Source of the DNA: Candidatus Woesearchaeota archaeon
GTDB taxonomy: Archaea > Nanobdellota > Nanobdellia > Woesearchaeales > ARS49
Direction of reading: 5' to 3'
Assembly: GCA_019322895.1 (NCBI GenBank)
Contig: JAHWHZ010000001.1
Span: 459,528 to 523,527 of the forward strand
Length of the DNA stretch: 64,000 nucleotides
Shown in pieces: positions 38,101 through 56,168 of this stretch (the first letter of the stretch is position 1; each line of letters starts with the position of its first letter). Below the pieces are notes generated by a model that saw only the letters and a list, made by a program, of their open reading frames with translations, was not told where the DNA came from and did no database searches. The position numbers and the translations under genes are program-made.

Positions 38101-39851
38101 AGATGGAAAGTTTCTTCCCTGGATTTGATGTGTATCCCAAGAAATCCCATTCAGTTGCAGTCAATGTTTCTGAAGTCAAGGGCTACACATATTATGTTGC
38201 CTGCAAAGACAAGGCAGAACTATTGTCATCATCAAAGCCGATCACATTCACTATTGACTTGACAGCCTTGTTTGCAATAAAGAGCACTACAGAGCCTTAT
38301 TCCAGCACAGAATTGTTTGACCTGCGTATTGAAAGCAATAAAAGGTCATTCTGCTTTTTTGGAGAAAATAAGAACAGCATCTCAAACTGCTTTGGGGCAT
38401 GTGAATTCACTAATGGCCATGCCCAGCCAATCACAAAGCCTGCTGGAACTTACACGTTCTTTGTTAAGTGCAATACCGGCTCTGGAGGGGAATCGAGCAA
38501 TGTGCTTAATATCACTGTGACAGTTGATACCAGCCCTCCTGTTATGGAGTATGTTGATGACAGCTCTACACTGCCTGGGGAGCCAGACATATCATGGTAT
38601 CCTGACAGGCTAAAGGTCAAGTTCAAGGGCAAGGATCCTGAGACAAAAGTCATAAAATATTATTATCTTTTAGAGACTGCATTTGCAAGAGAGCTTGTTG
38701 TGAACTGGACTCCAAGTCTTGAGCTAAATGGAACTTCTATCTTTGTAAAAGCAAACTTGTCTGACGGCCAGAGATATGTTTTTAGGGTAAGGCCTGTGAA
38801 TCTTGTCGGCCTGGTTGGAAATTTCAGTTCAAGTGACGGAGTGACAGTTGATTTGTCAAAAATGCCTCCTGTCTGTGCTAATGGAGAAAAAGATGCAAAT
38901 GAAACTGATATTGACTGCGGAGGCATGTGCGCAGGCTGTGCAGTAGGTAAAAATTGCCTGAAGAATAATGACTGTGAATCAGTGTATTGTGCAGAGAATG
39001 TTTGTGCAGAGCCTTCTTGTACAGATGGCGTAAGAAATGGCCAGGAGACTGATGTTGACTGCGGCGGTCCTGAGTGTCCGAAATGCATGCTTAACAAGAC
39101 ATGTGCAGAAAATACTGATTGTGATTCTGGCAGCTGCTTGTTTGGAAAATGTGCTGTTGATACCTGCAAAAATGGTGTTCTTGACAACACAGAGTCTGAT
39201 ATTGATTGCGGAGGTGCATGCCCATCAAGGTGCGGCAGTGGAATGAACTGCAACCTGCCAGGTGATTGCGCAGAAGAACTTGCCTGCATTGACAATACTT
39301 GTAGTGTTCCTCTTGACTTAGATGAAGATGGTGTTCCTGATTATCTTGATATCTGCCCTAATACTCTTCCAGGTGTTCCTGTTGATGCACAAGGATGCGA
39401 GATTGTTGAAGAGATTCCTGCTGCAGAAAAGCCTTCCTTCTTGTGGACTCTCATAAAGTTCTTGCTGATACTTGCAGTGCTTGGAGGCCTTGGATTTGGA
39501 GGATATTATGCTTACAAGAAAGGATATTTAGATAAAGTGATTGCAAAGTTCAAGAAAGCCCCTCCTGCTGCGCCTGAAATAAAGCCTGCTGCTGTAAAAG
39601 CAAGGCCAAAGCCTAAGCCAGTAGGGCCTACACCTGAAGAAAGGATTGCTGCCTTGCGAAAGTTTGCAAAAAAGAAGGAGCGGCCTGCAATAACAGAAGA
39701 GTTTGTTCCATTAGAGAAATTAAAAACTAAAAAAAGGCCTAAAACAAAGGCTTTTGAGAAGCTAAAGAAGCTTAAATCAAAGAAAAAAGCTTCTAAGAAA
39801 AAATCTAAAGAAGAGGCCATAGCAAAGCTGAGGAAGATAAGGAAAAAATGA
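35181..39851 (+). CDS. giant (1556 aa) type-I-membrane surface protein: Sec signal, Cys-rich modules, Ig-like regions, three or four novel 6-Cys tandem repeats, TSP-type-3-like Ca-binding motif, C-terminal TM and Lys-rich cytoplasmic tail
   Basis: Signal ...AAAVFAQQ. Repeats of the form CxxGxxNxxETD(I/V)DCGGxCxxC...C...DC.S..C....C at about 38866-39310. DLDEDGVPDYLDICPNT matches DxDxDGxxDxxDxCP. TM segment FLWTLIKFLLILAVLGGLGFGGYY. Tail KKAPPAAPEIKP...KKLKSKKKASKKKSKEE. Confidence 0.7.
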   Translation: MCRRLNKKILLISIMMILTALAAAVFAQQFGCCCDPIVRTGSIMNQSACVSPFVFVPIPAFGFTGCPALCNATNITAPPTVPPSCTAPGYKPPVSNLFVLPVKGEKAVQIDFNLPCPVNHVKIYRCQGSGCTNFTLLTTLGSSNSYKDESADLLWDEDYNYKIIANYKVSGDSTPATAEVNIGDLECWYQTTNDLFCIAPYYYDQFKSYLKKYGYKIASADDFKADFDSERDSVFNDFYRKSWRCNDMNQLSKPSPQVSCTEDEICISDGSTAKCVESVSCDLGGDFGLQSDVDDCEGEYGEIKYCFLDKSTTVVNKCYPCNPQMTCYDYHSEDACLRDNCGAGQCAWTDVFPDLGIGVCYDARFDACSLCQARPSSSASNKEGFNEVFDACTEEKARALSTDEIPCFFNKNTQEGQSCDYVDCTAYTQTQCSSPAGGIQLNSDNSIKVGSNDACQINVCQYSVETGCVKNANGASGVGWSDCLDAEDPELCEKDYFPPETIAVLTGEAPGKHDYIDLIINDMTSRTGKTKEMQGEPGYKTYLCIVSANNSCNIASAFPITTTKSRLIINDLNLQDGQDVVGKFSEGNNKVKFYSVDPNKNLEVIKEVIVFACDKCSGPKAINITVTGANEVNGKFYTRVLQPSIKITFDEPAELIASSLDKAGVLQSLASSPTSGLNYQYTFMPNNQLSEGVYRFSVNAKDDNGVSMDNPVVFDLYIDTTPPTVVITPEDGVEFETKDVAVALNFSEPVFFNKTTLDEVVFINEFAKESFPIYLSRELSSENSKYFSGIVTNLKAGLKIVNVDVTDYAGNVLRTKSYFSVFAGPPKIRMVHPSWGISSVFSFNVTVESSTKAKCKYIYDVPAPPPATQFDSLSDFDSSDGIYHVINQVTIPYGDTSTHSLHVYCKAGEFNISRQSFNLFIDSIAPKIVSAYANPDPIVEPVETGAEIYSTRLQVQTDEEGFCKYSADKQDFKEMESFFPGFDVYPKKSHSVAVNVSEVKGYTYYVACKDKAELLSSSKPITFTIDLTALFAIKSTTEPYSSTELFDLRIESNKRSFCFFGENKNSISNCFGACEFTNGHAQPITKPAGTYTFFVKCNTGSGGESSNVLNITVTVDTSPPVMEYVDDSSTLPGEPDISWYPDRLKVKFKGKDPETKVIKYYYLLETAFARELVVNWTPSLELNGTSIFVKANLSDGQRYVFRVRPVNLVGLVGNFSSSDGVTVDLSKMPPVCANGEKDANETDIDCGGMCAGCAVGKNCLKNNDCESVYCAENVCAEPSCTDGVRNGQETDVDCGGPECPKCMLNKTCAENTDCDSGSCLFGKCAVDTCKNGVLDNTESDIDCGGACPSRCGSGMNCNLPGDCAEELACIDNTCSVPLDLDEDGVPDYLDICPNTLPGVPVDAQGCEIVEEIPAAEKPSFLWTLIKFLLILAVLGGLGFGGYYAYKKGYLDKVIAKFKKAPPAAPEIKPAAVKARPKPKPVGPTPEERIAALRKFAKKKERPAITEEFVPLEKLKTKKRPKTKAFEKLKKLKSKKKASKKKSKEEAIAKLRKIRKK
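38866..39310 (+). repeat. tandem array of about 45-aa six-cysteine modules inside the giant surface protein
   Basis: PPVCANGEKDANETDIDCGGMCAGCAVGKNCLKNNDCESVYCAENVC / PSCTDGVRNGQETDVDCGGPECPKCMLNKTCAENTDCDSGSCLFGKC / DTCKNGVLDNTESDIDCGGACPSRCGSGMNCNLPGDCAEELACIDNTC. Confidence 0.6.
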
Positions 39852-40321
39852 AAAAAGCGCAGATGATAGGCCAGATATTTATTTTTGTAGTTGCTGCAAT
39901 AATTTTTATCCTTATCCTTATGTATGGGTATAAGGCAATCTCTAATTTTTTGCAGCGTTCTGAGCAGGTTGCATTGATTGATTTCAAGTCTGATTTAGAA
40001 TCTTCTGTAGAGGTCATCAAGAGGGATTATGGCAGTGTGAGAAAGCTTGAATTAAAGCTGCCAAAAAGATATACAGAGCTCTGCATAATTGATATAAACA
40101 ATTGCGAGCCGCTAAAGAAACAGAGGCCTTTGATGTATTCGACGTGTATTGCAGGCAGTGAGAATGTCATACTTGTTCCTAAGCAGGAAACTCCTATCTT
40201 TCTTCCAGACATAACTGTTTTAGGCGGCTACACTTGTGTTGATGTTGCCCACGGCAATGTTGTACTGGGCCTTAAGGGTCTTGGCAAGTCAACACAGATT
40301 TCAGGGTGGCCTGTTCCATAA
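39848..40321 (+). CDS. pilin-like protein with archaeal class III signal peptide
   Basis: MKKAQMIGQIFIFVVAAIIFILILM... The ATG overlaps the upstream stop (ATGA). Confidence 0.55.
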   Translation: MKKAQMIGQIFIFVVAAIIFILILMYGYKAISNFLQRSEQVALIDFKSDLESSVEVIKRDYGSVRKLELKLPKRYTELCIIDINNCEPLKKQRPLMYSTCIAGSENVILVPKQETPIFLPDITVLGGYTCVDVAHGNVVLGLKGLGKSTQISGWPVP

Positions 40322-41358
40322 TGAAAAAACGCGGTTTTGAGATGCAGTTTCACTGGATTTTTATTCTGATAGCTGGCGCTGTAATCCTTGCTTTCTTTTT
40401 TTCTGTAGTTGCCAAGCAAAAATCGCTTTCTGAGCAAAAGCTTTCCATAACCCTCTCAGAGAATATTGAAGCGGTTTTTTCTGGCGCAATTGAAAGCAAG
40501 GGAACTGCCCAGTTGCTTGCAATGCCTAAAGGGGGACTGTCTTTTTCCTGCTCAGAGGCTTGTGACTGTAATTTTTGGATTGATGACAAGGCAACTTCTT
40601 TCAGCGATAAGATCCTGTTTGCTCCCTCCTTGATTGAAGGCCAGGATGCTGTGGCCTGGTCAAATGAATGGAAGATGCCTTTTAGGATAACTAATTTCCT
40701 GTACATCACAAATCCTAATATCAAGTATTATCTTGTTTATGAGGCTGGCAAGAATGACCGCTTGTTTGATAGGATAAATAAGTCATTTCCACCTGGATTG
40801 AATGTGGCTGTTTTGAGAGACCCGAATGAAGTAGAGGATGTTCCTTATGAAGGTTATCCGGAGACTAAGTTTATATTTTTAGATGTGGTCAATCCTGAGA
40901 TTAACCTGATGGGCATGGACAGTGATTTCAAGAGAGAAGAGGTTTCTGCAATAAATATCCAGCCAAATGCAAATTCAATCACTTTTTACGAGAAAACGCC
41001 TAAAGAGATTGAATTTACATCCAAATCATCTCCTTTTGCAGGCGAGCCGTGGATATTTGCCGCAATATTCGCTGCAGATAAGCAGATGTATGATTGTGGC
41101 TTGCGGGCAGCTTTCCTTAAGCTGAGTCATGTTGCGCAGGTAATTTATGGCAGGGCAAAGATGATACAGGCCAACATAACCCAAATAAAACCTGAATGCA
41201 CATATTTGCTTGACAGTTTTGACGTGCTTATTGAAAGCTCAAAAAGTTTTGTAAATCAATTGGATTTTTCAAGTATTTCAGGCATAGCCCAGGCTGCTGA
41301 TGATATTGAGAGAGAAAACAAGAACATAATATTGTTATCCTGCCCAGAGATTTATTAA
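40321..41358 (+). CDS. pilin-like protein (class III signal peptide, 345 aa)
   Basis: MKKRG|FEMQFHWIFILIAGAVILAFFF. The start is set at ATG 40321, overlapping the upstream TAA by 1 nt. Confidence 0.55.
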   Translation: MKKRGFEMQFHWIFILIAGAVILAFFFSVVAKQKSLSEQKLSITLSENIEAVFSGAIESKGTAQLLAMPKGGLSFSCSEACDCNFWIDDKATSFSDKILFAPSLIEGQDAVAWSNEWKMPFRITNFLYITNPNIKYYLVYEAGKNDRLFDRINKSFPPGLNVAVLRDPNEVEDVPYEGYPETKFIFLDVVNPEINLMGMDSDFKREEVSAINIQPNANSITFYEKTPKEIEFTSKSSPFAGEPWIFAAIFAADKQMYDCGLRAAFLKLSHVAQVIYGRAKMIQANITQIKPECTYLLDSFDVLIESSKSFVNQLDFSSISGIAQAADDIERENKNIILLSCPEIY

Positions 41359-41359
41359 A

Positions 41360-41851
41360 ATGAGGCGAGCACAGATAAAGATGTTTGAAACAATGGCTGT
41401 GTTAGTGATATTCTTCTTTTTATTGGTCGGCGGTGCTGCTTTTTATTTTCAGATACAGAAAAGCAGCATAAAAAGAGATTTGGAGAGGCAGGAGCAGCTG
41501 CGTGCGTTTCAGGTTGTGCAGAAAGCGTTGTTTTTGCCAGAGCTTGACTGTTCTTTTGTGAGCATACAGAAAGATAATTGCTTTGATAAATTAAAAGTGA
41601 TTAATCTCCAAGAGCTTTTGAAGCAGGAAAAGTTTATGATTGATTATTTTAATGTGTTTGGTTTTTCCGAGATAAAGATAATGCAGCTTTATCCTGTTAA
41701 TGATACCTTTTCATATACTCTTTACCAGAACATTCCTGAAAAATATAAGTCCGTGATAAGCACGCAAAGCCCGATACTGCTGTTTGATGCAGTGCAGAAC
41801 AGGTATAATTTTGGTGTTGTTGAGGTTGATGTTTATGCAGAAGAGCAATAA
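41360..41851 (+). CDS. pilin-like protein (class III signal peptide)
   Basis: MRRAQIKMFETMAVLVIFFFLLVGG. Confidence 0.5.
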   Translation: MRRAQIKMFETMAVLVIFFFLLVGGAAFYFQIQKSSIKRDLERQEQLRAFQVVQKALFLPELDCSFVSIQKDNCFDKLKVINLQELLKQEKFMIDYFNVFGFSEIKIMQLYPVNDTFSYTLYQNIPEKYKSVISTQSPILLFDAVQNRYNFGVVEVDVYAEEQ

Positions 41852-42320
41852 GTCCCAGATGGAGATAATGGGTCTGGTAATTATAGTGATACTTGTTGCT
41901 ATTGGAATGCTTTTTGCAGTGCAGTTTTTGCTGAAAAAGCCTGCTGGAAGAGAGACTGCAGCTGTAAAGGAAAGCACGATTGCGGCAAATTTCCTTAACG
42001 CGATGCTTTCCACCACAACTGACTGCTATAACAGGAACATTCGCGAATTATTGCAGGACTGTGCTCTTACTGGCGGCACCACAAGATGCCCTGGCCAGAG
42101 AAACTCTTGTGATTATGCTGCAGACCAGATAAGAATAATGCTTGACAAGACATTGAGCACCTGGAACAAGGATTATTATTTCAGCATAAAAGGCGCTCCT
42201 GGTGTTGAGGCAATCTCTTTTGGCAATTCCTGCCCTGAATGTGAGAGAGAGGCAAAGATACATCCTGTTCCTGTCCGGCCTGGCTTTGAGATACAGCTTA
42301 CGCTTGAGATTTATAGTTAA
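41835..42320 (+). CDS. pilin-like protein (class III signal peptide), Cys-containing
   Basis: The start is set at ATG 41835 (MQKSNKSQMEIMGLVIIVILVAIGMLF). Four Cys in the globular part. Confidence 0.5.
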   Translation: MQKSNKSQMEIMGLVIIVILVAIGMLFAVQFLLKKPAGRETAAVKESTIAANFLNAMLSTTTDCYNRNIRELLQDCALTGGTTRCPGQRNSCDYAADQIRIMLDKTLSTWNKDYYFSIKGAPGVEAISFGNSCPECEREAKIHPVPVRPGFEIQLTLEIYS

Positions 42321-42350
42321 TCTTTATATATCGCTTTTTCTTTATATCTA

Positions 42351-44207
42351 ATGATGGGGGACAGCAGGATTAAAAGAGCATATAATTGGCTAGTGAAAAA
42401 GCCTTTGCGCACAGCAGGCATTGCAGGACTTATTGCATTGCCTTACAGTTTGTACAATGTTTTGAACTGGAAGATTTCTTTTATTGATTCAGAGGCGTCT
42501 GAGCTTTTTCAGGATCTTTTTGCAATAACCACTCCTGTATGGACAGCAGCCAGCACAGGCTTTTTTGCAGAATTGCTCAATACTTTTACTTATGAAGATA
42601 AATATCATCCAAGAACAAGATTAAGTGATTTCAAGAAGAGAAGGAAAATAAAAAAAGAACTTGCAAAAACTGATTTTGAGTCATTAATTGACAAGGAGTT
42701 TAAGTTGTTGAAGGCAGATAATGTCTTGAAGACGCTTTATGATGAAGGAATTAAAAGGCCAGGTATCACAGGAACTCCTGAAGGCACAGACAAGCTTGCT
42801 GAGCTGGCTGAAAAAGAAAAAAATCCAGCAATGCATTTTGATGCTGCATTTAATTATTTTGACCAGGATAAACATGATGAAGCTTTTATCCAGATGAGCA
42901 AGTTTCTTCAGCTTAATAAGGATATTTCTTTGCTTCATAAGCTTGATTTGACAATAAAAGACTTTTGCAACAGAACAGAAACTTTCTTGAATACCAGGAA
43001 TTCATTTCCCTTGTTTTATGCAGCCTTGATAGAGATATTGAAAAGAAATTATGACAGCGCCCTTTATTATTCTTCTTTTGCAAGAAAAACAGCTGAAGAA
43101 TTTGACAGTCCGATCAAGAAAGAAATATTTTGCCTTGACTCATTGATTCATCATGCACTGAATGCAAAGAATTCAAGCGAAATCTGGGCCAATTTTGTGA
43201 TAGAGACAAGAAAACAGCAGGCTCTTGAAAGGATTGCTGAAACAAAGAATCTTGTGAGGCAGGTGAAAGACAGCAGGTTCTTGTCAAAGACAATTGTGTT
43301 AAAAGACAAGCATGATAGAAAAGATCTTGAGGCAGAGGCAGAGATGACAAATTACATTAAAGGCATTCTTCCTACTAGAGATGAGCTCAAGAAGATAATC
43401 GGCGATGATATTGGAATAACATTTGATACTCCAGAGATGTTTTATCTTTCAGAAAAACCTGTCAATAATATGTATCCATTGGTCATGCGCCATGCTCCTG
43501 GAGAGACCTTGCTTGAGCAGTTTAAGAAAGAAAAATATTCTATGTTTCCTTTTATTGCTGTATGCCTGGCAAAGATTCATGCAGATGTCCCTGCTGAAAA
43601 AGTCAGGAAAAAGCAGCTTGAGATTATTCCTAAGTTAATGCGCAAGCTGACAGATCCTGATCTAAAGCTCTCAAAGGACCTGACTGAAAGAGTCCTTCGC
43701 AATTACAAGCCTGTGTTGAATCTTTTTAAGGACGCAACGTATGTCTATAATAAGGATGCGCATCCAGAAAACTGGCTGATACATGACAAGACAGTTATTG
43801 TTCTTGACTGCGAGAATAATTTCTTGGTCCCGCAGCAGTTTGACTTGGTTAATTTGCTTGAGTATTCAGATTACCTTACTGATATGCAGAAAGATTATGC
43901 AATAAAGCTGTATATTGATGCATATGAGGAATTCACAAATACCTTGATTGACAGGGAAAAGTTCAAGCTTACGTATTTAAATTCAGTGATTCAAAGAGCC
44001 ATCTCCTTGTGTACTGCCTGGTCTTCTGAATACAGGAAGTCAATGCATGCTGAAAGGCCTAAAGTAATTGCAAATGCCATTCACGCGATAGACAGGATGC
44101 AGAAAGAGCATAAAACATATTATTACAGGCATAAATTTAATTATTTGAATTTGCAGAGAGCTTTAGAAGAAATAAAGGAATTAGTCAGTGTTCAAGGCAA
44201 TCATTGA
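42351..44207 (+). CDS. hypothetical 618-aa protein; C-terminal region with protein-kinase-like (APH/ChoK-type) signature
   Basis: NKDAHPENWLIHDKTVIVLDCENNFLVPQQFDLVNLL resembles the HxDxxxxN ... DxE ... DL motifs of aminoglycoside/choline kinase-like folds. There is one N-terminal hydrophobic segment. Call is tentative. Confidence 0.3.
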   Translation: MMGDSRIKRAYNWLVKKPLRTAGIAGLIALPYSLYNVLNWKISFIDSEASELFQDLFAITTPVWTAASTGFFAELLNTFTYEDKYHPRTRLSDFKKRRKIKKELAKTDFESLIDKEFKLLKADNVLKTLYDEGIKRPGITGTPEGTDKLAELAEKEKNPAMHFDAAFNYFDQDKHDEAFIQMSKFLQLNKDISLLHKLDLTIKDFCNRTETFLNTRNSFPLFYAALIEILKRNYDSALYYSSFARKTAEEFDSPIKKEIFCLDSLIHHALNAKNSSEIWANFVIETRKQQALERIAETKNLVRQVKDSRFLSKTIVLKDKHDRKDLEAEAEMTNYIKGILPTRDELKKIIGDDIGITFDTPEMFYLSEKPVNNMYPLVMRHAPGETLLEQFKKEKYSMFPFIAVCLAKIHADVPAEKVRKKQLEIIPKLMRKLTDPDLKLSKDLTERVLRNYKPVLNLFKDATYVYNKDAHPENWLIHDKTVIVLDCENNFLVPQQFDLVNLLEYSDYLTDMQKDYAIKLYIDAYEEFTNTLIDREKFKLTYLNSVIQRAISLCTAWSSEYRKSMHAERPKVIANAIHAIDRMQKEHKTYYYRHKFNYLNLQRALEEIKELVSVQGNH

Positions 44208-45095
44208 TGCAGAGAAATCAACTATTTTCAGGACAGCGTTATTTAAGTAGTTAAGCATTCCTGCTTCTGCTCCTTTTTTTATGCTCACTGCCTTGTGCCC
44301 TTTTTCAAGCAGTTCTTTTTTCTTTTCATTCAGTTTATTTAACTGCTTTAAGTCAAATGAATAAAATAATTCGTAATATCTTCTCAGCAGGTCATTTGTT
44401 TCCTTGAATAAAGAAATGCTTTCTTTTGAAAGTTTTGCATTGCTTTCTGAGAGCAGTTTGCAGATATACTTGTAATCATCGCATACTTTTTCAAGGTTCC
44501 ATGCGATTACATAATAAAAGCAGGTTTTTGCATAATCAAGATGCCCTTTCTTGTTGAGTGTTCTTTGGCAGAAATTTGTTAATTGATTGTTTGTTTTTTC
44601 AAGTGCAAGAAGCTCTTTCAATTGCTTTTGCTGTCCCTGCTTGATGTATTCTATTGCACTGTCGCCCATTGATATTGTCACAAGCCACGCTCTTCTCAGG
44701 ATGTTGTCAAACTCCTGCTCTCTTTCCTGTGATATTGCTCGTAATACGCATCTTTTATTGCTTTGGTGCACAATTGCAAATCCAACAAAGAGGTCTTTCA
44801 CAAGCTCTTGTATGACTGCTGTCTTTTTCGGGTTTTCATAGAATAATTCTATCTCATCATAGCCTTTCTTGTGCAGGCTTGATAACAGCCATCTAAGGGT
44901 TCTTTCGTCTGTCTTTGTTATGTTGATGCTTGTCTTTTTTGTGTCTATTTCTTTTTTTGTTGAGAATATGATGTTTGTTGCCCTGTCTTTTACTTCCAGT
45001 TCATCTCCTTTTTTGATGCCGTACTTTTTTACCCACTTGCTTGGCAAACTCACCACAAAGGTTCTTCCTGCAAGCTGTATCACTTTTCTCTTCAT
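44181..45095 (-). CDS. transcription regulator: AbrB/SpoVT swapped-hairpin N-domain fused to PhoU-like domain
   Basis: MKRKVIQLAGRTFVVSLPSKWVKKYGIKKGDELEV (AbrB/MazE-type) plus a helical PhoU-like repeat region. Confidence 0.6.
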   Translation of the reverse strand: MKRKVIQLAGRTFVVSLPSKWVKKYGIKKGDELEVKDRATNIIFSTKKEIDTKKTSINITKTDERTLRWLLSSLHKKGYDEIELFYENPKKTAVIQELVKDLFVGFAIVHQSNKRCVLRAISQEREQEFDNILRRAWLVTISMGDSAIEYIKQGQQKQLKELLALEKTNNQLTNFCQRTLNKKGHLDYAKTCFYYVIAWNLEKVCDDYKYICKLLSESNAKLSKESISLFKETNDLLRRYYELFYSFDLKQLNKLNEKKKELLEKGHKAVSIKKGAEAGMLNYLNNAVLKIVDFSASMIALNTD

Positions 45096-45227
45096 ATTAC
45101 TTGCTTAAACTTTGGAATATATAAGTTTTTCTATATTATATAACTATAAGGCAATATATAAGACTTAAGAAAAAAGTATATAATAATCAAAGCTTATAGT
45201 ATTATATTGTTTAGGAGGTGATATATA

Positions 45228-48179: not shown

Positions 48180-51100
48180 AAAAAAGAGGTGTAAGTGGGG
48201 CTTTTATGTGGGTTTCTATAGTTATAGGGCTCATTGTTATCTTGTCCATTGGAACAGTCCTTTACCAGGGAAGAGATTATCTCTCAGAAAAAATATTTGG
48301 AAAAAAATACATCTCTGCTGAAGAAAAAGAATTTGTTCCTTACGAAGTGGAGTTAGAAGGAGAAGTAAAGACAGCAGATGATTCTATGAAAGCTCTTGTT
48401 TGCGCTTTCAACAGTTTGGCTATTGAGAAAAAAGGCTGGCTCATTGAAGGAGTGTGTCCAGAAGGGTTTTATTCAAAAGAAGTAGAAGAGAAAAAGAAAA
48501 AAGAGGCAGAAGAGAAGAAAGCAGCAGAAGAAAAGAAAAAAGCAGAGGAAAAGAAAACAGAACCCACGCCTGCTCCAACAGGAGCAATGGTTTCAATAAC
48601 AGGCGCCGCAACTAAAGAGGATTGCGATGGTGCCTTGTATGGCCAGACTTGTGTTGAGTGCCGTGAAAGCGAGTTTGGCATGAAAACAATTACTTTGCCA
48701 GACAGCGAATATGATGCTACAAAAATGTTAGCTAAAGCTGCAGTTCAGTGCTGGAATGATTTTAAAGGTCCAAAAGGCAATAAAGGCGAAAAAAATATTC
48801 TTTGCAATAAGGTTGTCATACCAGGGACTGCACCTGGCTGGGTAATAACAAAAGAAGAGTTTAGAGAACGTCTAGAAAAATTTGAAGGAGAAGTAGGTTC
48901 TGACTTGGCAGGTCTTGGTACTGGAACACAGAATGTTGATTGGAAATTTGGCGAGGCAATTGTCTTAAATATTAAACAAGAATTTTATATCTGCGCTAAC
49001 GATGCTTACGATGCCAATCCGTTTGACGCAGATGAGATTTTCTTCACGCGAAATCTAAATGATTGTGAAGTTGAAACAAGAGGGCTTGCCGAAAAAGAAT
49101 TTACCTGCGAAATTAAAACTTTTGAGTTGCCGCAGGAGATTGGCAGCGACATCAGTCTTTTTAATTGGGCAGAAGAGTTCATTAACAAGTATAATGACCC
49201 GGAATATCTTGCGTATTACGAGTCTTTTCCAAGAGGAGAGGAAGCAGCATGGCATTTAGAAGAAGGCGATTTTATTGTTGATGTTATACTGTTCGGTGCA
49301 GTCATGAATACGTTGCCTGTGCTTGGAAAAGGTGTGCGCCAAGCTGGCGGATTATTTAGAAGAATATTCACTAAAAAAATTCTTGTGGAAGTGCCTGAAG
49401 ATATTGTTAAGAAAGCTTCTAAAAAAACCATAACAACAGTATTAGGGAAAACAGGCAAAGAGATTGGAACAGAACTCGGCGAACAAACTATAAAAGAACT
49501 GACAGATATGTTTGGCAAAGGCATGGAGCGCCAGCTAAAATCACAGATACTCTATGATAATATACTTAAAGAAGTGGGGGAAGATGCTGCAGAAACAGCC
49601 CGCCAGGCATTTCTCTCAAAATATTCTATCTATAAAGGAATGGGAAAGACAGACGACCAGATTGCAACTCTTCTGAAAAAAGAGATCCCAGAAGCAATTG
49701 GAAAGACACCTGATGAAGTCAGCGGACTAATCAAGAATGTGGATGACGTGATTAAGAAATCCCTGGCAGAGCTTAGCGAATCCGCTAGGAATAAGCAGAC
49801 TGCCAGGCAGTTTTTTACAAAATATCTCTTGAAAGAAGGCGGTGAAAGCCTCAATAAAGAAGCTATGGAAAATATATTAGCTACAGCCTTGACTAAAGAG
49901 ACATATGATAAGCTTGGCCCAGAAGCAGCAGAACAAATAATGCAGCGTTCCCTTTCATATACTGATGAAATTATTGATGTCACTAAAGGCACCGATGAAT
50001 TGTTAAAAACCCAGTCATTGATAGGCCGAACTTATGGTGCAGTTGTTGGCCAAGTTAATAAAGAATTCAACCTTTTTGCAAATATATTGAGCCAGCCAAA
50101 TAAAGATACCTTATCAAGATTTTTATTAGGAGTAACTCCCAAAGAAATTGGCGAAGCTGTTGCGCAAAAAGGAGGGGCATTAGGTGCTATCGGAGCAGCT
50201 GCAGCGCGTTATAATCCTATTCATATTTCAATAGGAACAGGAAAAATTGTTCCAATTCCTAGACCTTTGTTGGTACGTTCACTTGTTGGAACTGCATATA
50301 AGACTACGCGTACAGGCATTCGTTTTACCTCTGATGCTGCAGGGGCTGCATGGCATTCCAGGGCTGCGCGTTACACACTGGCATATCTCCTTGCAACGCA
50401 GATAGCTGAATCAGATGCAAAGAATGATAAATTAGGTTATAATGAGGAAAATACGCTTATCCTGCAAAAGCCTTATGATTTTGATGCTAAGGCAAAATAT
50501 TTTTTGTCAGATGAAACTAATAAGTATTACTTGAACTTGCACAAGTATCAGTATGGTGATGCGCGGTTCTTCCTTGCAAGTCCCTGCAAAGCAGACTTGA
50601 CAATACCTAAAACAGATTGTGATTGTAATATCTATTCTGGAGATTACATCTTGAAATCCAATAATCAGCCATTTGACCCTGCTTCTGTAAAATTCAAGAG
50701 CGATGACGCGATTCATACTGTGTATAAATATGATGAACTTTCAAAAGATGGTAAAAGAGCTGCAATGGATTATTGTTTAGTAAAAGACCAGGAGTTTGGT
50801 GTTTTATGCAACATATTTGTTATGAAGGATCCTGAAGCTTATGAAAAGTTTACAAAATATGTTTATAAGAATGTTTATAGCCCTGCAATTGATTTCATGC
50901 AAAAATATAAAGTAGATGAAGAAAAGATTGCTGATATCATTGAAAGAAAAGAAGGGGATGTATCGCTTACAATAGGCCACATAATTTCAGATGCTGGCGA
51001 AGAATTAAGGCCGCATTATGAATTTGGTGCTTTCTGCTTTTTTGCAGAAGGCGGTATTGGTCCTTGCTCAGTCAATATTCCTGGTGCGCTCACTGAGATG

Positions 51101-51700
51101 CTTGTAGAAACAAGAGCTCCTGAGCTTACATTAAGAAAAACTCCTTTGTCTTATGAAGAATTCAAAAAAGAGTTTGATAAGGTTATTGCAAGTGGTTATT
51201 ATGAGAATATTGCATTTTCAGTTTATCATAAACTGGGAGCGATTAGGAAAGGCGAAGGTATGTATTTCATGGATATGTATGACCCAAATGGATTCTTAGA
51301 TATTGCTACAAGACACACTTACTTAAATTACAATGTTGTTGAAGACAGCAAGATTGACAAAAAGAAGATTGCAAAGCTTTGTAATACTAGATTAGATGAG
51401 CGGGAGCCACACATAAAAAGTATGCTCGCAACAAAAGTATCTATTGCTTGTTTTAATGCCCAGCCAAGCATAGAAGGATATCCTGATTATAATAATGGCC
51501 ATAATTATTGCTTCAGCAGCGAGCATGCTGGAATTGAGACTGCCAAAGATATTGCCACAGGCATTTCTATTGCAATTGACTTTGGTGCAGGAATCATAAG
51601 TGGCGGCTTGGCAGAAGCGCCTGTAGCAGCTCTTACTGGCCTTGGTTCTGCATGGTTTGCTCATGAAATGGATAAAAAGAAATTCTGGCCAAATCATTAA
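48176..51700 (+). CDS. giant (1175 aa) pilin-like surface protein with Lys/Glu-rich repeat
   Basis: The start is set at ATG 48176 (MKKRG|VSGAFMWVSIVIGLIVILSIG). EKKKKEAEEKKAAEEKKKAEEKK is encoded by an approximately 85-nt pure polypurine tract. The remainder has no recognisable domain. Confidence 0.55.
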   Translation: MKKRGVSGAFMWVSIVIGLIVILSIGTVLYQGRDYLSEKIFGKKYISAEEKEFVPYEVELEGEVKTADDSMKALVCAFNSLAIEKKGWLIEGVCPEGFYSKEVEEKKKKEAEEKKAAEEKKKAEEKKTEPTPAPTGAMVSITGAATKEDCDGALYGQTCVECRESEFGMKTITLPDSEYDATKMLAKAAVQCWNDFKGPKGNKGEKNILCNKVVIPGTAPGWVITKEEFRERLEKFEGEVGSDLAGLGTGTQNVDWKFGEAIVLNIKQEFYICANDAYDANPFDADEIFFTRNLNDCEVETRGLAEKEFTCEIKTFELPQEIGSDISLFNWAEEFINKYNDPEYLAYYESFPRGEEAAWHLEEGDFIVDVILFGAVMNTLPVLGKGVRQAGGLFRRIFTKKILVEVPEDIVKKASKKTITTVLGKTGKEIGTELGEQTIKELTDMFGKGMERQLKSQILYDNILKEVGEDAAETARQAFLSKYSIYKGMGKTDDQIATLLKKEIPEAIGKTPDEVSGLIKNVDDVIKKSLAELSESARNKQTARQFFTKYLLKEGGESLNKEAMENILATALTKETYDKLGPEAAEQIMQRSLSYTDEIIDVTKGTDELLKTQSLIGRTYGAVVGQVNKEFNLFANILSQPNKDTLSRFLLGVTPKEIGEAVAQKGGALGAIGAAAARYNPIHISIGTGKIVPIPRPLLVRSLVGTAYKTTRTGIRFTSDAAGAAWHSRAARYTLAYLLATQIAESDAKNDKLGYNEENTLILQKPYDFDAKAKYFLSDETNKYYLNLHKYQYGDARFFLASPCKADLTIPKTDCDCNIYSGDYILKSNNQPFDPASVKFKSDDAIHTVYKYDELSKDGKRAAMDYCLVKDQEFGVLCNIFVMKDPEAYEKFTKYVYKNVYSPAIDFMQKYKVDEEKIADIIERKEGDVSLTIGHIISDAGEELRPHYEFGAFCFFAEGGIGPCSVNIPGALTEMLVETRAPELTLRKTPLSYEEFKKEFDKVIASGYYENIAFSVYHKLGAIRKGEGMYFMDMYDPNGFLDIATRHTYLNYNVVEDSKIDKKKIAKLCNTRLDEREPHIKSMLATKVSIACFNAQPSIEGYPDYNNGHNYCFSSEHAGIETAKDIATGISIAIDFGAGIISGGLAEAPVAALTGLGSAWFAHEMDKKKFWPNH

Positions 51701-52308
51701 CTTAATGACATCATCGTTCTTCCAGGAGCATGTTCTTTAGTTACATCTCCTACAAGTATTCCAAATGTTCTTATTCTTGCATCATCTGAAAATCTTTCTG
51801 CATCATCTATTATCTGGTCATGATACATTCCTGAATCTATCTCTTTGAATTCAAAAGGTCGCATCTTTGTGTACATCACTCCCCATTGAATGTTTGTGAA
51901 ATTCATTTGCTCTTTCCAGTCCTCATCAAGAAATATGTCAACAATCCACTGGCCGTCCTCTCTTTTCTCTGTCATGAAGCCTTCCATAATGCCGTCATCT
52001 GGGGTCATTTCAGTTGTTATTCTTATTTTGACTTCACCATCTTCAACAAATTGGTTTGTGAATTGCTGGCCTTTGTAATATCCTTCTAATTCAAATACAG
52101 TGCTTATCTCTGTATCTCTGTATTGCAGTCCCATGGAATCCATGAACATTCTTCTGCCTGTCGCTTTATCTATGTCTATTGTGCTGTCCTCCACCCAGGT
52201 CTCTGGCTCTTCAGGAGAATATGGCTTTGGCCTGGTTGATATATAGATTGATACTAAAAGAAGTATGAGTGTGATTATTATTCCTATTATCACCACTTTT
52301 TTTTCCAT
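51697..52308 (-). CDS. membrane-anchored hypothetical protein
   Basis: 203 aa with an N-terminal TM (VVIIGIIITLILLLVSIYI). It is the only minus-strand gene inside the pilin-like cluster and is convergent with the giant gene. Confidence 0.45.
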   Translation of the reverse strand: MEKKVVIIGIIITLILLLVSIYISTRPKPYSPEEPETWVEDSTIDIDKATGRRMFMDSMGLQYRDTEISTVFELEGYYKGQQFTNQFVEDGEVKIRITTEMTPDDGIMEGFMTEKREDGQWIVDIFLDEDWKEQMNFTNIQWGVMYTKMRPFEFKEIDSGMYHDQIIDDAERFSDDARIRTFGILVGDVTKEHAPGRTMMSLS

Positions 52309-52381: not shown

Positions 52382-52711
52382 ATGAAAAAAAGAGCTGTTC
52401 AATTGTCTGTGCAGACAATGATTATTGTAGCTCTTGGCTTGATTGTTTTGCTTGTCTTGATTTTTCTTATCAGAGGCCAGATTCAGAAAGGTGCTGGACA
52501 GTATTTTGATATTGGCACGAAAATCGGCAAAGAGGCAGAGCTTGAGAAATGCCAGGGCGGATTCTTTACTACAAAACAATGTGCCACAAACTGCATAAAG
52601 GATCCTAAGCTGGATGAGAATTATTATTGGGAGGATATTGGCCCAAAAGACTGCAAGGCTCCTACGCCGGTATGCTGCCAAAGAGGAGATAAAAAAGCTT
52701 CTATAAAATGA
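52382..52711 (+). CDS. small Cys-containing pilin-like protein
   Basis: MKKRA|VQLSVQTMIIVALGLIVLLVLIFLI, with 6 Cys in the mature part. Confidence 0.5.
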   Translation: MKKRAVQLSVQTMIIVALGLIVLLVLIFLIRGQIQKGAGQYFDIGTKIGKEAELEKCQGGFFTTKQCATNCIKDPKLDENYYWEDIGPKDCKAPTPVCCQRGDKKASIK

Positions 52712-52712
52712 T

Positions 52713-52806: not shown

Positions 52807-52858
52807 GCACGTTTAAAAATAAGAAACTTTTAAATAACAATTATGCTAATTCTTTATT

Positions 52859-53380
52859 ATGTCAAAAAAAGGGGCAGTAGCATTAGAATACTTGGTTGAT
52901 TTAATTCCAAGAATAATAATATTTGTAGGGCTTCTGGCTGCATTGGCTGTTTTGTTTAATGTTATAGTAAAGCAATCAGCAACAACTCCTGCTGAAGATG
53001 ACTTGAACAGGGTTTTTGAAAAAATAAAGCAATTGCAGCCATACAGAGCAGAAAAAGTGTTTACAACAGGCGATGATTATACATTAGTCTTGTACGGACA
53101 GGAGCATATTGATCTTCCTGAGCAGTGCAGCAAAGCAGCATGCTTGTGTGTTACAGATGCAAAAGGAAAAACATCATGTAAAAGACTTACTGATGTGAGC
53201 AAGCAGTGCGCCACCTCAAAATGCGCCGCAAGCCCGATGTGTTTTGATCCTATAAGCTCAAATAAAGTTTATATCAGGGGAACCGGCACGGTCCGAGAGC
53301 CAATTTACATTTGCAGGCACTGCACAGAATTAATGATTACAGATTCAGAAGCATTATGTAAAGGACATGCAGCAAAATGA
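52859..53380 (+). CDS. pilin-like protein, Cys-rich
   Basis: MSKKG|AVALEYLVDLIPRIIIFVGLLAALAVLF is a classic archaeal prepilin N-terminus, with 12 Cys. Confidence 0.55.
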   Translation: MSKKGAVALEYLVDLIPRIIIFVGLLAALAVLFNVIVKQSATTPAEDDLNRVFEKIKQLQPYRAEKVFTTGDDYTLVLYGQEHIDLPEQCSKAACLCVTDAKGKTSCKRLTDVSKQCATSKCAASPMCFDPISSNKVYIRGTGTVREPIYICRHCTELMITDSEALCKGHAAK

Positions 53381-54480
53381 TTTCTAAAAAAGGAACAATA
53401 GTGGACCTTGTCTTAATGCCTACTTTCACGACAATAATTGTTCTTGGCTTTATTTTGCTGAGCATCCTTGCTACAATCAAAGGCCTGCATGGTGATTTGC
53501 AGCCGGAAAAAGCATCAACTGCAATAAATTCAGGACTGCTAACAATAGGATTGCATGATCTTACAGGAAATATTGATTATATCTACGGCAACAGGAAGAA
53601 TTTCAGCTTTGATTTCCAGGACAATAAAATATTGGTTTACACAAAGAAAAAAGACAAGTCAGATGCAGTAACTTATGCTTTTGCAGAAGACGGCTCTTTA
53701 GGCAGGCTTACATTCATTCCAAAAACCCTTAATTTCACCAAAAAAACAATACGTGAGCTTCATTTTGTCAAGCAGGGCAATGTTGTTTTTGTGGACAGCC
53801 CTATTGTTAATGATAAATTCCGGGCAAATCTTGATTTGCTGGAGTGCTCAAGAGAAAAGACAACAGCACTAAAAAAAGATATAATTATAGATCCATCTCT
53901 TGGCTGGGACGCAAACCTTGAGAAAGAGGGTGTTCCTGCCGGCGAAAAAGGTTATATGAATCACAGACTGCAGATAACAGAGTCTGATGTTAATAGGATT
54001 ATTGCAGCAAGGCTTTTTGGCTATGGCAAGGACTTTTTTGCTGAAAAAGCACAGCACACAAGAAGCTTATCGCAGGATTCAAAGGTTGACTTAAATGAAA
54101 AAATAAACAAGGTACAGAAAAGCAAGGGAAACGCAGTAATCTCACTGCGCCTTGGCAGCTATGCTGATACAGATTTCAATCCAGTTATTGCTTATATCAA
54201 TGGAGAATCAAATGACATTAAGGCAAGCAGGAAACTTGCCTGCCTTATCCTTAATGCACTCTCAAGCAAGCTTCCTGAAATCACTGATATTGCGATTGTT
54301 CCTGTCAGCATAAGCCAGCTTGATAGATTTTCAGGAAATGACCCAAAAAGAGTGCTGCTAAAGGAGAAGATAGGATTGCAGTTAGTCATAGGCAATGTCC
54401 AGATAGAAAATAAGAATATGATTGTTGAAAAACAAGATGACATTGCAAGAGCAATATACGATGGCATTAAGGCTTATTAA
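53377..54480 (+). CDS. pilin-like protein (367 aa)
   Basis: MISKKG|TIVDLVLMPTFTTIIVLGFILLSIL. ATGA overlap with the upstream gene. Confidence 0.5.
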   Translation: MISKKGTIVDLVLMPTFTTIIVLGFILLSILATIKGLHGDLQPEKASTAINSGLLTIGLHDLTGNIDYIYGNRKNFSFDFQDNKILVYTKKKDKSDAVTYAFAEDGSLGRLTFIPKTLNFTKKTIRELHFVKQGNVVFVDSPIVNDKFRANLDLLECSREKTTALKKDIIIDPSLGWDANLEKEGVPAGEKGYMNHRLQITESDVNRIIAARLFGYGKDFFAEKAQHTRSLSQDSKVDLNEKINKVQKSKGNAVISLRLGSYADTDFNPVIAYINGESNDIKASRKLACLILNALSSKLPEITDIAIVPVSISQLDRFSGNDPKRVLLKEKIGLQLVIGNVQIENKNMIVEKQDDIARAIYDGIKAY

Positions 54481-54943
54481 AAACAAGAAAGGCGCGAAGC
54501 TTCATAATTTTCTGTATTTGATACTTTATGTAATCCTTACTTTTATTGTGGTTCTTTTGCTGGTGCAGATTCCTGAGAAAATGTTTAAAGCAAGGATGGA
54601 GCAGGGATATTTTCCTCAAACTGTAAACCAGGACAGGATAAGCACCATGTTTGCTTACAAAAATCCCTATTCTGGAAGATTAGACTTGCTAAAAGTTTCT
54701 TCAGCCAACATGATTCAAAACAAGACAGCAAAGAATCTTCTCAGCTTTCCTGAAGAAGAGGAAGTGGCATTATTTGTTTCATTAGACAATAAAAAGTCTT
54801 ATTATGACAGGAAATTTTACAAAAGAGCCAAGCCATTGGTTCCTGTAAGATATGTCAGCTTGCTAAATACGCGCAAGGTCCAGGCGCAGGATGACAAGTC
54901 CTGGAAAACATTAACAATAGAGCAGGTTTTCAGGAGAACATGA
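54461..54943 (+). CDS. pilin-like protein
   Basis: The start is set at ATG 54461 (MALRLIKNKKG|AKLHNFLYLILYVILTFIVVLLLV). Confidence 0.45.
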   Translation: MALRLIKNKKGAKLHNFLYLILYVILTFIVVLLLVQIPEKMFKARMEQGYFPQTVNQDRISTMFAYKNPYSGRLDLLKVSSANMIQNKTAKNLLSFPEEEEVALFVSLDNKKSYYDRKFYKRAKPLVPVRYVSLLNTRKVQAQDDKSWKTLTIEQVFRRT

Positions 54944-55338
54944 ATAAAAAAGGAGATATCAGGCCGGCACTTTACTTGTTTGCAATAATTGGCATTGGAT
55001 TTCTTTTTATCTTGTTTTATATCTGGCAGGGCGCTGCGTATGAGGCAGGCAAGGAAATAATAATTATCTCAGAAGAAGTGCACAAGAATCCGATGCTTAC
55101 AAAACTGCTTAGTTACAATGTAGATTCTGGCCGGACAATAGGTGATGCAATTGCATACGATGAATTAAGCAAAGCCTGCGTAGCTGCTAAAAAAATAATG
55201 GACAAGGAGAAATTCATCCTTTCCTTGGATGGAGTTGATTTTTGCTCTAGTGAGAAAGGGCCTGAAAAGCCTGCAAAGATAAAAGCACTTATCCCTGCTG
55301 AAGATAATCAGATAAAAGAGGTTGTTTTAGAAATATGA
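54940..55338 (+). CDS. pilin-like protein
   Basis: MNKKG|DIRPALYLFAIIGIGFLFILF. ATGA overlap. Confidence 0.5.
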   Translation: MNKKGDIRPALYLFAIIGIGFLFILFYIWQGAAYEAGKEIIIISEEVHKNPMLTKLLSYNVDSGRTIGDAIAYDELSKACVAAKKIMDKEKFILSLDGVDFCSSEKGPEKPAKIKALIPAEDNQIKEVVLEI

Positions 55339-56168
55339 GAAGATTATTGAAGAACAAGAAAGGGTTTAACTGGGCCTTCTTGATGCTGGGCGTAGTGTTG
55401 ATCTGCCTTGTTTACTTGTTTTTCCAGCTTAATTCAAAACTAGCAAGCTTATCAATTATAGGTCCAAATCAGATGCAGGTAATCAATGCAAAAAAGCAGT
55501 CAAGTGATGTATTCTTCTATCTCGATCAAGCAAGCAGGCTTTCTGCCTGCAATGCAATATATGATTTAGGTGAAAAAGGAGGGTTTGCAAGCAATATTGC
55601 GTGCAACAAGCCGCCTTTCATAGGCGTGATAGATACGCCGCACACATACTGGAATGCAGGAGATGAGAAATGCTATGAAAACATAAATTTCTATGCAGAA
55701 TTTGAAAAGTTGTTCAAGCAGCATTTCATTAATTATCTCAGGATTTACAATGCTTTTCCTGCTGCAGACATAGATATTGATCCTTTTAATTATGAATTCA
55801 TGATTACAGATGACTTGATTGTTGGTTCTGCAATAAAGAATGCAGAAATGTCATTTGTTTCTTTGGATGCAGGATCATTAAGCAAGTATGTTTTCAAGCC
55901 TTCTTTTGCAATTGATTTTAAGACAGGAATAAATGATTATTTCAAGACAGGCGAGGCAGTTGACAAGTTGCTTGACTGTGACAAGCCAATGGCACAATGC
56001 ATCAATGATTTGAATACTCCTGGCCTGTCCTGGCATTTTACGCAGTCCAGCATGCCTGGCATTTATTTGTTTGAAGTGACGCAGAACAGTATAAACTGCA
56101 GGTTTGCCGGGGCAAAGCCTAAAATCAAGTTTGCTTTGCAGAAGATGCCGCCTGTTCCAGGGCCTTGA
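55335..56168 (+). CDS. pilin-like protein
   Basis: MRRLLKNKKG|FNWAFLMLGVVLICLVYLFF. ATGA overlap. Confidence 0.5.
   Translation: MRRLLKNKKGFNWAFLMLGVVLICLVYLFFQLNSKLASLSIIGPNQMQVINAKKQSSDVFFYLDQASRLSACNAIYDLGEKGGFASNIACNKPPFIGVIDTPHTYWNAGDEKCYENINFYAEFEKLFKQHFINYLRIYNAFPAADIDIDPFNYEFMITDDLIVGSAIKNAEMSFVSLDAGSLSKYVFKPSFAIDFKTGINDYFKTGEAVDKLLDCDKPMAQCINDLNTPGLSWHFTQSSMPGIYLFEVTQNSINCRFAGAKPKIKFALQKMPPVPGP

Follow-up and report, generated by a model that had tools for sequence, protein, structure and literature searches.

Class III (prepilin-type) signals have been described in archaea both on pilins and on other surface proteins. In Methanococcus maripaludis, the substrates of EppA carry a leader of 5-13 amino acids that ends in glycine and is followed by a conserved glutamine at position +1 (PMC3875500). 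The pilin genes of this organism are spread over at least four loci, with the ATPase gene and two platform genes elsewhere, and in Haloferax the ATPase is not co-transcribed with any of the six pilins (PMC3875500). In Sulfolobus, a minimal pair of ATPase and platform protein, whose genes lie elsewhere, assembles non-pilin ectoproteins that bear class III signals (PMC3047682; 10.64898/2026.04.22.720090). Type IV filament systems have also been reported in several DPANN lineages (preprint 10.64898/2026.04.22.720090; PMC8561730). Here, we analyze a window of 64,000 nucleotides from a Candidatus Woesearchaeota archaeon (assembly GCA_019322895.1, contig JAHWHZ010000001.1, positions 459,528 to 523,527 of the forward strand) and focus on a gene cluster at window positions 29636-56168. 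We propose that this cluster encodes the structural subunits of a type IV filament-like surface apparatus, a pilus or pseudopilus, that is conserved in Woesearchaeota, an explanation that we consider the most probable and hold with guarded confidence.

The N-termini of the encoded proteins are central to this proposal (genes U1-U4 and G1-G19, Table 1). Our motif rule required M-x(0-9)-[KR][KR]-[GAS] and, 0-10 residues further on, a hydrophobic 16-mer whose mean Kyte-Doolittle value was at least 2.0. It matched 15 of the 19 genes between 39848 and 56168 (G1-G4, G8-G12 and G14-G19; the motif is missing from G5, G6, G7 and G13), whereas of the 43 genes in the rest of the window only one fits (15559-16725, minus strand; Fisher exact p = 6e-10). 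U3 carries an N-A-Q variant of the motif and is the 16th class III-like protein of the cluster. All 16 have a short basic leader ending in glycine, alanine or serine, and then a hydrophobic segment of about 20 (20-25) residues. Eight other window proteins with hydrophobic N-termini provide an internal control: in these, lysine or arginine directly precedes the hydrophobic residues, in the manner of Sec or lipoprotein signals. Because these eight have the usual Sec or lipoprotein layout, the motif is a property of the cluster and not of the whole proteome. A prediction made earlier by a model from the letters of this DNA (hereafter the original prediction) had described a basic start and a hydrophobic helix in nearly every gene of the 39848-56168 block, with at least 15 class III genes. 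Both the enrichment and the count are upheld, with U3 added. The pattern that it gave, M-(K/R)-(K/R)-(G/A/Q), captured the basic start but was too loose, the real motif being [KR][KR][GAS] followed by glutamine.

The putative processing site is conserved among orthologues. In five families (G1, G3, G4, U3 and G8), each from about 17-58 species, position -1 is occupied only by alanine, serine or glycine (100%) and position +1 by glutamine in 92-100% of members, with lysine or arginine at -3 and -2 in about 70-95%, except at -3 of U3 (about 46%). The G1 family combines A/S/G at -1 (100%) with glutamine at +1 (92%) and +5 (90%), and the U3 family has lysine at -2 (94%), serine or alanine at -1 (100%) and glutamine at +1 (100%). 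Q+1 and E+6 are invariant in the G3 family, as are Q+1, E+3 and G+6 in the G4 family. The G2 family follows the pattern KK[AG]/[FIVL]-E-x-Q-F-N-W, in which the slash marks the putative site (E+2 94%, Q+4 94%, W+7 100%). An acidic residue is thus invariant or nearly so within the hydrophobic segment of G4 (E+3), G3 (E+6) and G2 (E+2), and there is none in that of G8. Within the window, glutamine stands at +1 in G1, G3, G4, G8, G9, G11 and U3. Judged by these sequence features, the N-termini appear to behave like EppA-type class III signals, although the match is incomplete: the cluster does not conform to the EppA-type E+5/QxSxExxxL (DUF361) motif, and glutamate occurs at +5 only in G15. The class III arrangement named in the original prediction has been traced across orthologues, with the putative site kept in as many as 58 loci per family.

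A basic N-terminus followed by a helix of 20-25 residues would also fit a signal anchor, and the main alternative, which we regard as unlikely, is that the cluster encodes ordinary type II signal-anchor ectoproteins that are neither cleaved nor polymerised. These would constitute a co-regulated surface set together with wall-degrading ectoenzymes under the surface layer, scavenging peptidoglycan debris or serving in adhesion. However, a plain membrane anchor is unlikely to explain the motif, because the conserved small residue at -1, the glutamine at +1 and the internal acidic residue exceed what the 'positive-inside' rule needs. A signal anchor has no need for a strict small residue and an invariant glutamine, nor for an invariant glutamate or glycine inside the helix, and the eight other N-terminally hydrophobic proteins of the window lack the motif, so that it is not a genome-wide habit.

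Structure prediction bears on the same question. AlphaFold models were obtained for two of the 16 class III-like proteins, G2 (from 113 homologues) and G3 (from 17 homologues). The AlphaFold2 model of G2 (predicted local distance difference test score, pLDDT, 93; predicted template modelling score, pTM, 0.86) consists of a helix at residues 6-58, a beta domain at 64-139, an alpha/beta domain at 146-238 and a helical bundle at 242-338. In the G3 model (pLDDT 88), a helix at residues 2-57 is followed by two short helices and four consecutive strands over residues 103-161, which would correspond to the classical 'lollipop' layout of pilins with its long helix, connecting loop and four-stranded sheet. 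The N-terminal helices of the two models, predicted with high confidence, are 53-56 residues long. The original prediction was to be given up if structure prediction showed no such helix and beta head; the model of G3 shows both. The modelled helix of G3 would run about 30 residues past the membrane segment before reaching the four-stranded sheet, as in pilins, which argues against a simple signal anchor. The 35-amino-acid G10 and the G8 family (about 90 amino acids), which are almost nothing but helix, argue in the same direction. Profile-profile comparison further revealed that the G3, G4 and G1 families have only their N-terminal 25-29 columns in common, as is typical of pilins.

The locus is widespread. 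Relatives were collected through G8 homologues first and then by a scan of one genome per species, which yielded 78 loci from Woesearchaeota/Nanoarchaeia, including the complete genome GW2011_AR15 (CP010425.1). Window proteins were compared with all open reading frames (ORFs) of these loci (about 1.3 Mb), many of which are cut by contig ends; the locus counts in Table 1, and that of RPA (32), are to be read with this in mind. Of the 78 loci, which come from distinct species of groundwater, ocean (Tara Oceans), sediment and brine, more than 50 (at least 50-60) contain the core. The cluster is therefore not an oddity of a single genome; its core represents a locus conserved in Woesearchaeota. 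Its order is constant: (U2) U3, U4, G1-G4, two to three G8-type genes, five to nine variable class III-like genes, a G19-type gene and RPA. Each locus holds 12-18 class III-like genes, all on one strand, and always ends at the RPA gene. The cluster consists almost wholly of families without annotation. A mobile or viral origin was considered and rejected, because the guanine-cytosine (GC) content is uniform and, from species to species, the cluster keeps its chromosomal site beside RPA. Many of the public MAG (metagenome-assembled genome) records with this Woesearchaeota-specific cluster (L014, L018, L024, L030, L033, L034 and others) are titled 'uncultured Methanosarcinales archaeon' (TPA assemblies), a label that looks wrong for the contigs concerned.

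That the class III-like signal implies cleavage and polymerisation is a step that we infer. In the filament that we propose, preproteins would insert via Sec, a prepilin peptidase encoded elsewhere would cut the leader before Q+1, and an ATPase and a platform protein, likewise encoded elsewhere, would polymerise the helices. The small, abundant and multi-copy G8, G9 and G14 proteins would make up the shaft, with G8 as the candidate major subunit. The first 30 residues of the G8 family are nearly invariant, and its profile retrieved 3743 cluster representatives (50% identity) at E <= 1e-3, nearly all of 80-160 amino acids. The G1-G4 quartet might form a priming or tip complex, by analogy with the minor pilins of bacteria, which likewise number four. 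The larger class III-like proteins could be 'modular pilins' that display effector domains, and the Sec-dependent giants U1 and U4 could act as adhesins.

A related scenario, which we find rather improbable, is a bindosome- or pseudopilus-like arrangement in which the N-terminal helices hold processed class III proteins together within a short structure, embedded in the envelope, that positions enzymes and binding proteins at the surface. The majority of the members of the cluster are large functional proteins and not shaft subunits, as this scenario would have it, and the Sulfolobus ectoproteins described above provide a precedent. However, the multi-copy, highly conserved and very small G8 family resembles a shaft subunit, and the cluster contains no ABC transporter or substrate-binding domain. 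Short and long assemblies are not separable by sequence alone.

Indications of function come from the variable part of the related loci, from which 109 class III-like proteins of at least 200 amino acids were scanned against Pfam. The recognisable domains are nearly all peptidoglycan hydrolases (VanY, Peptidase_M15, Amidase_2, SLT, Amidase_3, M23, M15_3, M15_2 and glucosaminidase), and all of these except Amidase_3 fall in a single family, that of G19. Members of this family consist of the leader, the helix, a shared domain of about 200 amino acids and then hydrolase modules that differ by species, and their genes always lie just before RPA. Among 35 members, VanY was found in 13, Peptidase_M15 in 11 (these are related models and may hit the same members), Amidase_2 in five (best E = 1.5e-28), SLT in four, and M23, M15_3, M15_2 and Glucosaminidase in one each. 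Most of the 34 relatives of G19 carry a recognised hydrolase domain at the C-terminus. Since the swapped enzymes attack different bonds of one polymer while the carrier stays constant, murein itself appears to be the target. Woesearchaeota are regarded as lacking peptidoglycan, their murein hydrolases have been read as tools against bacteria, and isolated lytic transglycosylase genes have already been taken as signs of attack on bacteria (PMC9723730).

A degenerate Amidase_3 domain occurs in G16 of the window, where the Pfam match (E = 5.8e-5, 23.6 bits) is under the 27-bit cut-off. In the alignment of the G16 family, the L060 member (5428-6381) keeps the motifs DPGHG, SLHAG and LEIGN, which in the window copy read DPSLG, SLRLG and LVIGN, so that the zinc-binding and catalytic histidine, histidine and glutamate are replaced by leucine, arginine and valine. 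G16 therefore has an amidase-like fold but is probably non-catalytic in this organism. As some members of the family have kept these residues and others have lost them, an enzyme may have been turned more than once into a module for binding or structure.

Taken together, these findings suggest a surface apparatus for contacting bacteria. Its ancestral job was most likely to bind the bacterial cell wall and open it locally, for host or prey contact or for the harvest of wall material, since in most relatives the last gene supplies, as effector, a murein hydrolase whose type varies. In this organism, adhesion or wall binding may be what remains, because G19 lacks the module and that of G16 is degenerate. 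The original prediction of a pilus or 'bindosome' for host-cell contact is strengthened in its second half by the murein-hydrolase modules of the relatives, which make contact plausible; for its first half, a match to a pilin fold or family is absent. The main comparative-genomics papers on Woesearchaeota do not mention pili, and the link of murein hydrolases to a pilin-like locus therefore appears to be new.

It is also conceivable, though in our judgement very improbable, that the locus serves the archaeon's own envelope, by remodelling a murein-like wall or anchoring the surface layer, and does not act on other cells. The locus is universal and occupies a fixed site beside a housekeeping gene, RPA, as is typical of core envelope functions, and bacterial wall hydrolases accompany trans-envelope machines. 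However, an own-envelope role sits poorly with organisms that are treated as having no peptidoglycan and whose hydrolases are read as anti-bacterial. Moreover, the type of hydrolase is freely swapped among species and the module has been lost here, which does not suit an essential housekeeping enzyme, and the giant lectin- and Ig (immunoglobulin)-domain proteins point outward.

Several observations weigh against the filament that we favor. About half of the window members (G2, G10, G12 and G14-G19) have no glutamine at +1. None of the cluster proteins matched the pilin or class III models PF04021 (Class_IIIsignal/DUF361), PF07790 (Pilin_N) and TIGR02537 at Pfam E <= 0.1 or NCBIfam E <= 1; the sole match to a pilin-related model, that of the G4 N-terminus to TIGR02523 (PilV), is weak (E = 0.009) and far below the cut-off. 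Fold comparison, suggested by the original prediction as a way to detect likeness to archaeal pilins, Iho670 and archaellins, gave no match to solved pilins or archaellins, although it is a weak test, in which the helix dominates the alignment and most pilin crystal structures lack the helix. Profiles of G1, G2, G3, G4 and the N-domain of G19 returned only chance hits against all PDB sequences. Neither a T2SSE-type Walker A ATPase nor a T2SSF platform protein or an A24 peptidase was found in the window, about 1 kb upstream and 7 kb downstream of it, or the 78 loci (about 1.3 Mb), and we assume that peptidase, ATPase and platform are encoded elsewhere in the genome. According to one groundwater study (preprint 10.1101/2020.05.14.094862), DPANN genomes lack the components of type IV pili. 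Finally, the window encodes no intact murein hydrolase, as G19 has no Pfam hit and represents the carrier part only, and G16 is degenerate. The lack of a pilin family or fold match, the missing machinery and the statement of the groundwater study all lend some weight to uncleaved signal anchors.

The machinery search comprised Walker A and polytopic-protein scans of the window and the 78 loci and a Pfam scan of all polytopic proteins. Pfam assigned the polytopic proteins to the SpoIIM, MarC, CDP-OH transferase, VIT1, ferric reductase and DUF6541 families. Since the machinery is missing from the window, its flanks and the 78 related loci alike, the locus is consistently without it. This does not speak against a filament, because the pilins of Methanococcus and Haloferax also lie apart from their machinery. 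The original prediction had likewise described the cluster as being without assembly machinery, which is true of the window but, measured against M. maripaludis and Haloferax, not unusual. In two relatives (L066, 1183-2085; L026, 3746-4663), a SpoIIM-family membrane protein is encoded upstream of the small pilin-like genes.

Table 1. Genes of the cluster in window coordinates, with the related loci in which homologues were found. A slash marks the putative cleavage site; aa, amino acids.
Gene	Coordinates	Strand	Description	Loci with homologues
U1	29636..32782	+	1048-aa secreted surface protein, ordinary Sec-type signal, concanavalin/LamG lectin-like domain; first of same-strand block	
U2	32798..33922	+	374-aa Cys-rich secreted protein, Sec-type signal; no Pfam hit	8, at the same position
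U3	33919..35196	+	425-aa class III-like protein, MRNA/QITLF...; start overlaps U2 stop (ATGA); no Pfam hit	22
U4	35181..39851	+	1556-aa giant surface protein with Sec signal, Ig-like domains, Cys-rich repeats, C-terminal transmembrane segment and Lys-rich tail	49, immediately 5' of G1 (1100-2660 aa)
G1	39848..40321	+	157-aa pilin-like protein, MKKA/QMIGQIF...; first of conserved quartet	52
G2	40321..41358	+	345-aa large pilin-like protein, MKKRG/FEMQFHW...; second of quartet	55
G3	41360..41851	+	163-aa pilin-like protein, MRRA/QIKMFET...; third of quartet	57
G4	41835..42320	+	161-aa pilin-like protein, MQKSNKS/QMEIMGL...; fourth of quartet	57
G5	42351..44207	+	APH-kinase-like protein; Pfam APH, E = 8e-5	
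G6	44181..45095	-	AbrB/MazE-type DNA-binding protein; Pfam MazE_antitoxin, E = 3e-7	
G7	45228..45692	+	Lrp/AsnC regulator; Pfam AsnC_trans_reg	
G8	45755..46081	+	108-aa small Cys-rich pilin-like protein, MRKA/QGLPITTIIIAALALVVLVVLFAIFTGR; no Pfam or NCBIfam hit	78, with 2-3 copies per locus
G9	46554..46895	+	113-aa G8 paralogue, MKKRG/QGLPITTIII..., Cys-rich tail; 40% identity to G8	79, L004 and L007 among them
G10	46953..47060	+	35-aa mini-protein, class III-like leader and one helix, MKKRG/VIEPEILIAIVLSVIFLIIAILVLTRKGII; ATGA-coupled to G11	
G11	47057..48025	+	322-aa class III-like protein, MNKKS/QAGIP...; no Pfam hit	21
G12	48176..51700	+	1174-aa class III-like protein, MKKRG/VSGAF..., Lys/Glu-rich linker, large ectodomain; no Pfam hit	11 (935-1290 aa)
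G13	51697..52308	-	203-aa plain N-terminally anchored protein, without [KR][GAS] motif	12
G14	52382..52711	+	109-aa third small Cys-rich pilin-like paralogue, MKKRA/VQLSVQTMII...; aligns with G8 family, 30% identity	38
G15	52859..53380	+	173-aa class III-like protein, MSKKG/AVALEYLV..., E at +5	8
G16	53377..54480	+	367-aa class III-like protein with degenerate Amidase_3 (MurNAc-L-Ala amidase) fold	
G17	54461..54943	+	160-aa class III-like protein, ..KNKKG/AKLHNF...	9
G18	54940..55338	+	132-aa class III-like protein, MNKKG/DIRPALY...	clear homologue in L010 only
G19	55335..56168	+	277-aa class III-like protein, last cluster gene; conserved N-domain of the family only	40

The upstream genes encode large or Cys-rich surface proteins alongside the class III-like U3. 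U1 matches Pfam Laminin_G_3 (E = 3e-19), and its N-terminus, MGSKHTLLVILVLILFSSTVYA, is without the [KR][GAS] motif. U4, probably an adhesin, matches Big_13 (E = 2.9e-7) and Big_3_3. The C-terminal part of U4 (38700-39400) contains four tandem Cys-rich modules of the form D-x-DCGG-x-C-x(2)-C, which precede the membrane anchor and a long Lys-rich cytoplasmic tail. Within the quartet, G2 has 153 homologues, every one a Woesearchaeota hypothetical protein without a Pfam domain, and five cysteines are invariant across the G4 family. Between the quartet and the small pilin-like genes, G5-G7 (42351..45692) form a non-pilin insertion that is found only in the clade nearest to the window (11-19 loci) and is absent from L004 and L007. 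These three genes are possible regulators, and the Lrp gene G7, which lies 63 bp upstream of G8, may regulate it.

The 35-amino-acid G10 is called in the public annotation, and a 33-amino-acid ORF of the same architecture occupies the equivalent position in L010 (11009-11107) and L011 (10895-10990). Genes of this type (33-35 amino acids) code for no more than a class III-like leader, a single hydrophobic helix and a short tail of basic residues, and theirs is the simplest pilin-like product in the cluster. G11 belongs to the biggest family of the variable region (40 members). G13 lies on the cluster strand in nine of 12 loci, including the closest relatives L010, L012, L014 and L015, and on the opposite strand in three (L019, L051 and L076). 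We considered location on an invertible segment and ruled it out, as no flanking inverted repeats were found; the reversal therefore seems to have arisen by inversion during evolution and not to act as a switch.

The source genome is a Candidatus Woesearchaeota MAG, and the window has a uniform GC content of about 0.40, with no compositional break at the cluster; the 'low-GC, DPANN-like' archaeon of the original prediction is an apt description. G8 and G2 are identical to NCBI entries KY346_03020 (MBW2973339.1) and KY346_02990 (MBW2973333.1), respectively, both on a 705-kb contig. The gene models of G1-G19 (39.8-56.2 kb), the 35-amino-acid gene included, match the public gene calls on an independent assembly of the same organism (L001). 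Addition of the same-strand genes U1-U4 to the 39848-56168 block gives a full cluster of about 26 kb. The original prediction had located the pilin-like block correctly but missed the upstream third of the cluster, which starts at 29636. The size range that it gave, 35-1175 amino acids, is right (the longest protein has 1174 here, and 1175 derives from the same start codon). The ATGA-type coupling that it described is real: four-nucleotide start/stop overlaps occur at 39848, 47057, 53377, 54940 and 55335, as well as at 33919. Searches of the window for tRNA, rRNA and Rfam matches returned none.

Other parts of the window hold further genes of potential interest. A second block of surface genes, without any Pfam hits, lies on the minus strand at 11123-16725. 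It encodes three paralogous lipoprotein-like proteins of about 310 amino acids, with a signal ending in cysteine and a GGGDVF motif in the first two, a 502-amino-acid protein with an N-terminal multi-pass membrane domain, and a 388-amino-acid protein with the class III-like start MKKRA/DGAPVGATAASLIGIIALLL. At 24856-25785, a 309-amino-acid protein combines a C-terminal DUF559/Vsr-like endonuclease domain with at least five N-terminal WNKG-containing repeats in a region of locally low GC (0.35). Downstream of the cluster, a DUF6541 polytopic protein with 11 predicted helices runs past the window end (62584-64000; L090, 1-6845) and is followed by membrane proteins and a PMT_2 glycosyltransferase; this region may be a protein-glycosylation cluster.

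Woesearchaeota are among the most widespread and diverse DPANN lineages, and, to our knowledge, no member has been cultured. A central question in the biology of DPANN archaea is how they recognise other cells and tap them, and the locus offers a concrete and testable candidate for a contact apparatus, with a hint of bacterial partners. About 26 kb of a genome of probably about 1 Mb, an estimate based on the 1.16-Mb complete AR15 genome, is devoted to it, in an organism that is tiny and probably symbiotic. The locus joins pilin-type signals, giant adhesins and peptidoglycan hydrolases, which had earlier been noted separately or not at all. In our reading, it represents a previously undescribed version of a locus for type IV filament subunits, composed of families that current annotation does not recognise. 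Several thousand small pilin-like proteins (3743 representatives) remain unannotated as a consequence, and are likely missed by pilin models and by censuses of type IV filaments that start from the ATPase. More tentatively, and with doubts that we do not wish to conceal, Woesearchaeota might share a dedicated pilus-like contact organelle, in which lineage-specific pilin-type carriers present interchangeable murein hydrolases; in a bolder version, this organelle would be assembled without the canonical ATPase and platform pair. If this were true, their partners or prey would be wall-bearing bacteria rather than archaea, unlike those of every cultured DPANN archaeon.

Comparison with known systems places the locus among several of them. 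The type IV pili of Saccharibacteria and other members of the candidate phyla radiation (CPR) offer an ecological parallel, as ultra-small, genome-reduced symbionts that invest heavily in pilins and for which host contact is thought or has been shown to depend on them (PMC11623550; PMC6744442). These systems are bacterial, however, their machinery genes are co-localised, and they have no homology with the families described here. The Sulfolobus bindosome (Bas) shares with the cluster the presence of class III signals on non-pilin surface proteins that are encoded away from the ATPase and platform (PMC3047682). While the bindosome presents sugar-binding proteins, the cluster has no substrate-binding proteins or ABC transporters, and instead possesses small shaft-like subunits and the conserved quartet.

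The four-minor-pilin tip complexes of bacteria resemble G1-G4 in being a conserved, translationally coupled, pilin-like quartet adjoined by the gene of a very large adhesin, here U4 (PMC8179133). They also contain one oversized member: G2 (345 amino acids) adds alpha/beta and helical domains, as GspK has an inserted alpha-domain. The differences are that no similarity of sequence or fold was detected, that the context is archaeal and the G1-G4 complex putative, and that U4 is Sec-dependent and C-terminally anchored rather than a PilY1 beta-propeller. In the modular type IV pilins PilB and PilC of Streptococcus sanguinis, a pilin-type N-terminal module is fused to a display module, and such modules have been exchanged in evolution (PMC8179133). 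In the relatives of the present locus, by comparison, the modules are VanY/M15, Amidase_2, SLT, M23 and glucosaminidase domains on a Woesearchaeota-specific carrier of about 200 amino acids, whose incorporation into a filament is putative.

The Epd pili of M. maripaludis (system 1, EppA) share several features with the cluster. Both have leaders of 5-13 residues that end in a small residue and precede a +1 glutamine (PMC3875500), a very small major subunit accompanied by many minor pilin-like proteins of varied size (PMC3875500; 10.64898/2026.04.22.720090), and pilin genes that lie apart from the ATPase and two platform genes. Unlike the Epd pilins, the cluster proteins have no DUF361/PF04021 match, carry alanine or serine at -1 as frequently as glycine, and do not conserve the +5 glutamate, the acidic residue standing instead at +2, +3 or +6. 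The Woesearchaeota locus further differs in its Cys-rich heads and in having 12-18 genes in one locus, with giant adhesins and, in relatives, murein-hydrolase modules.

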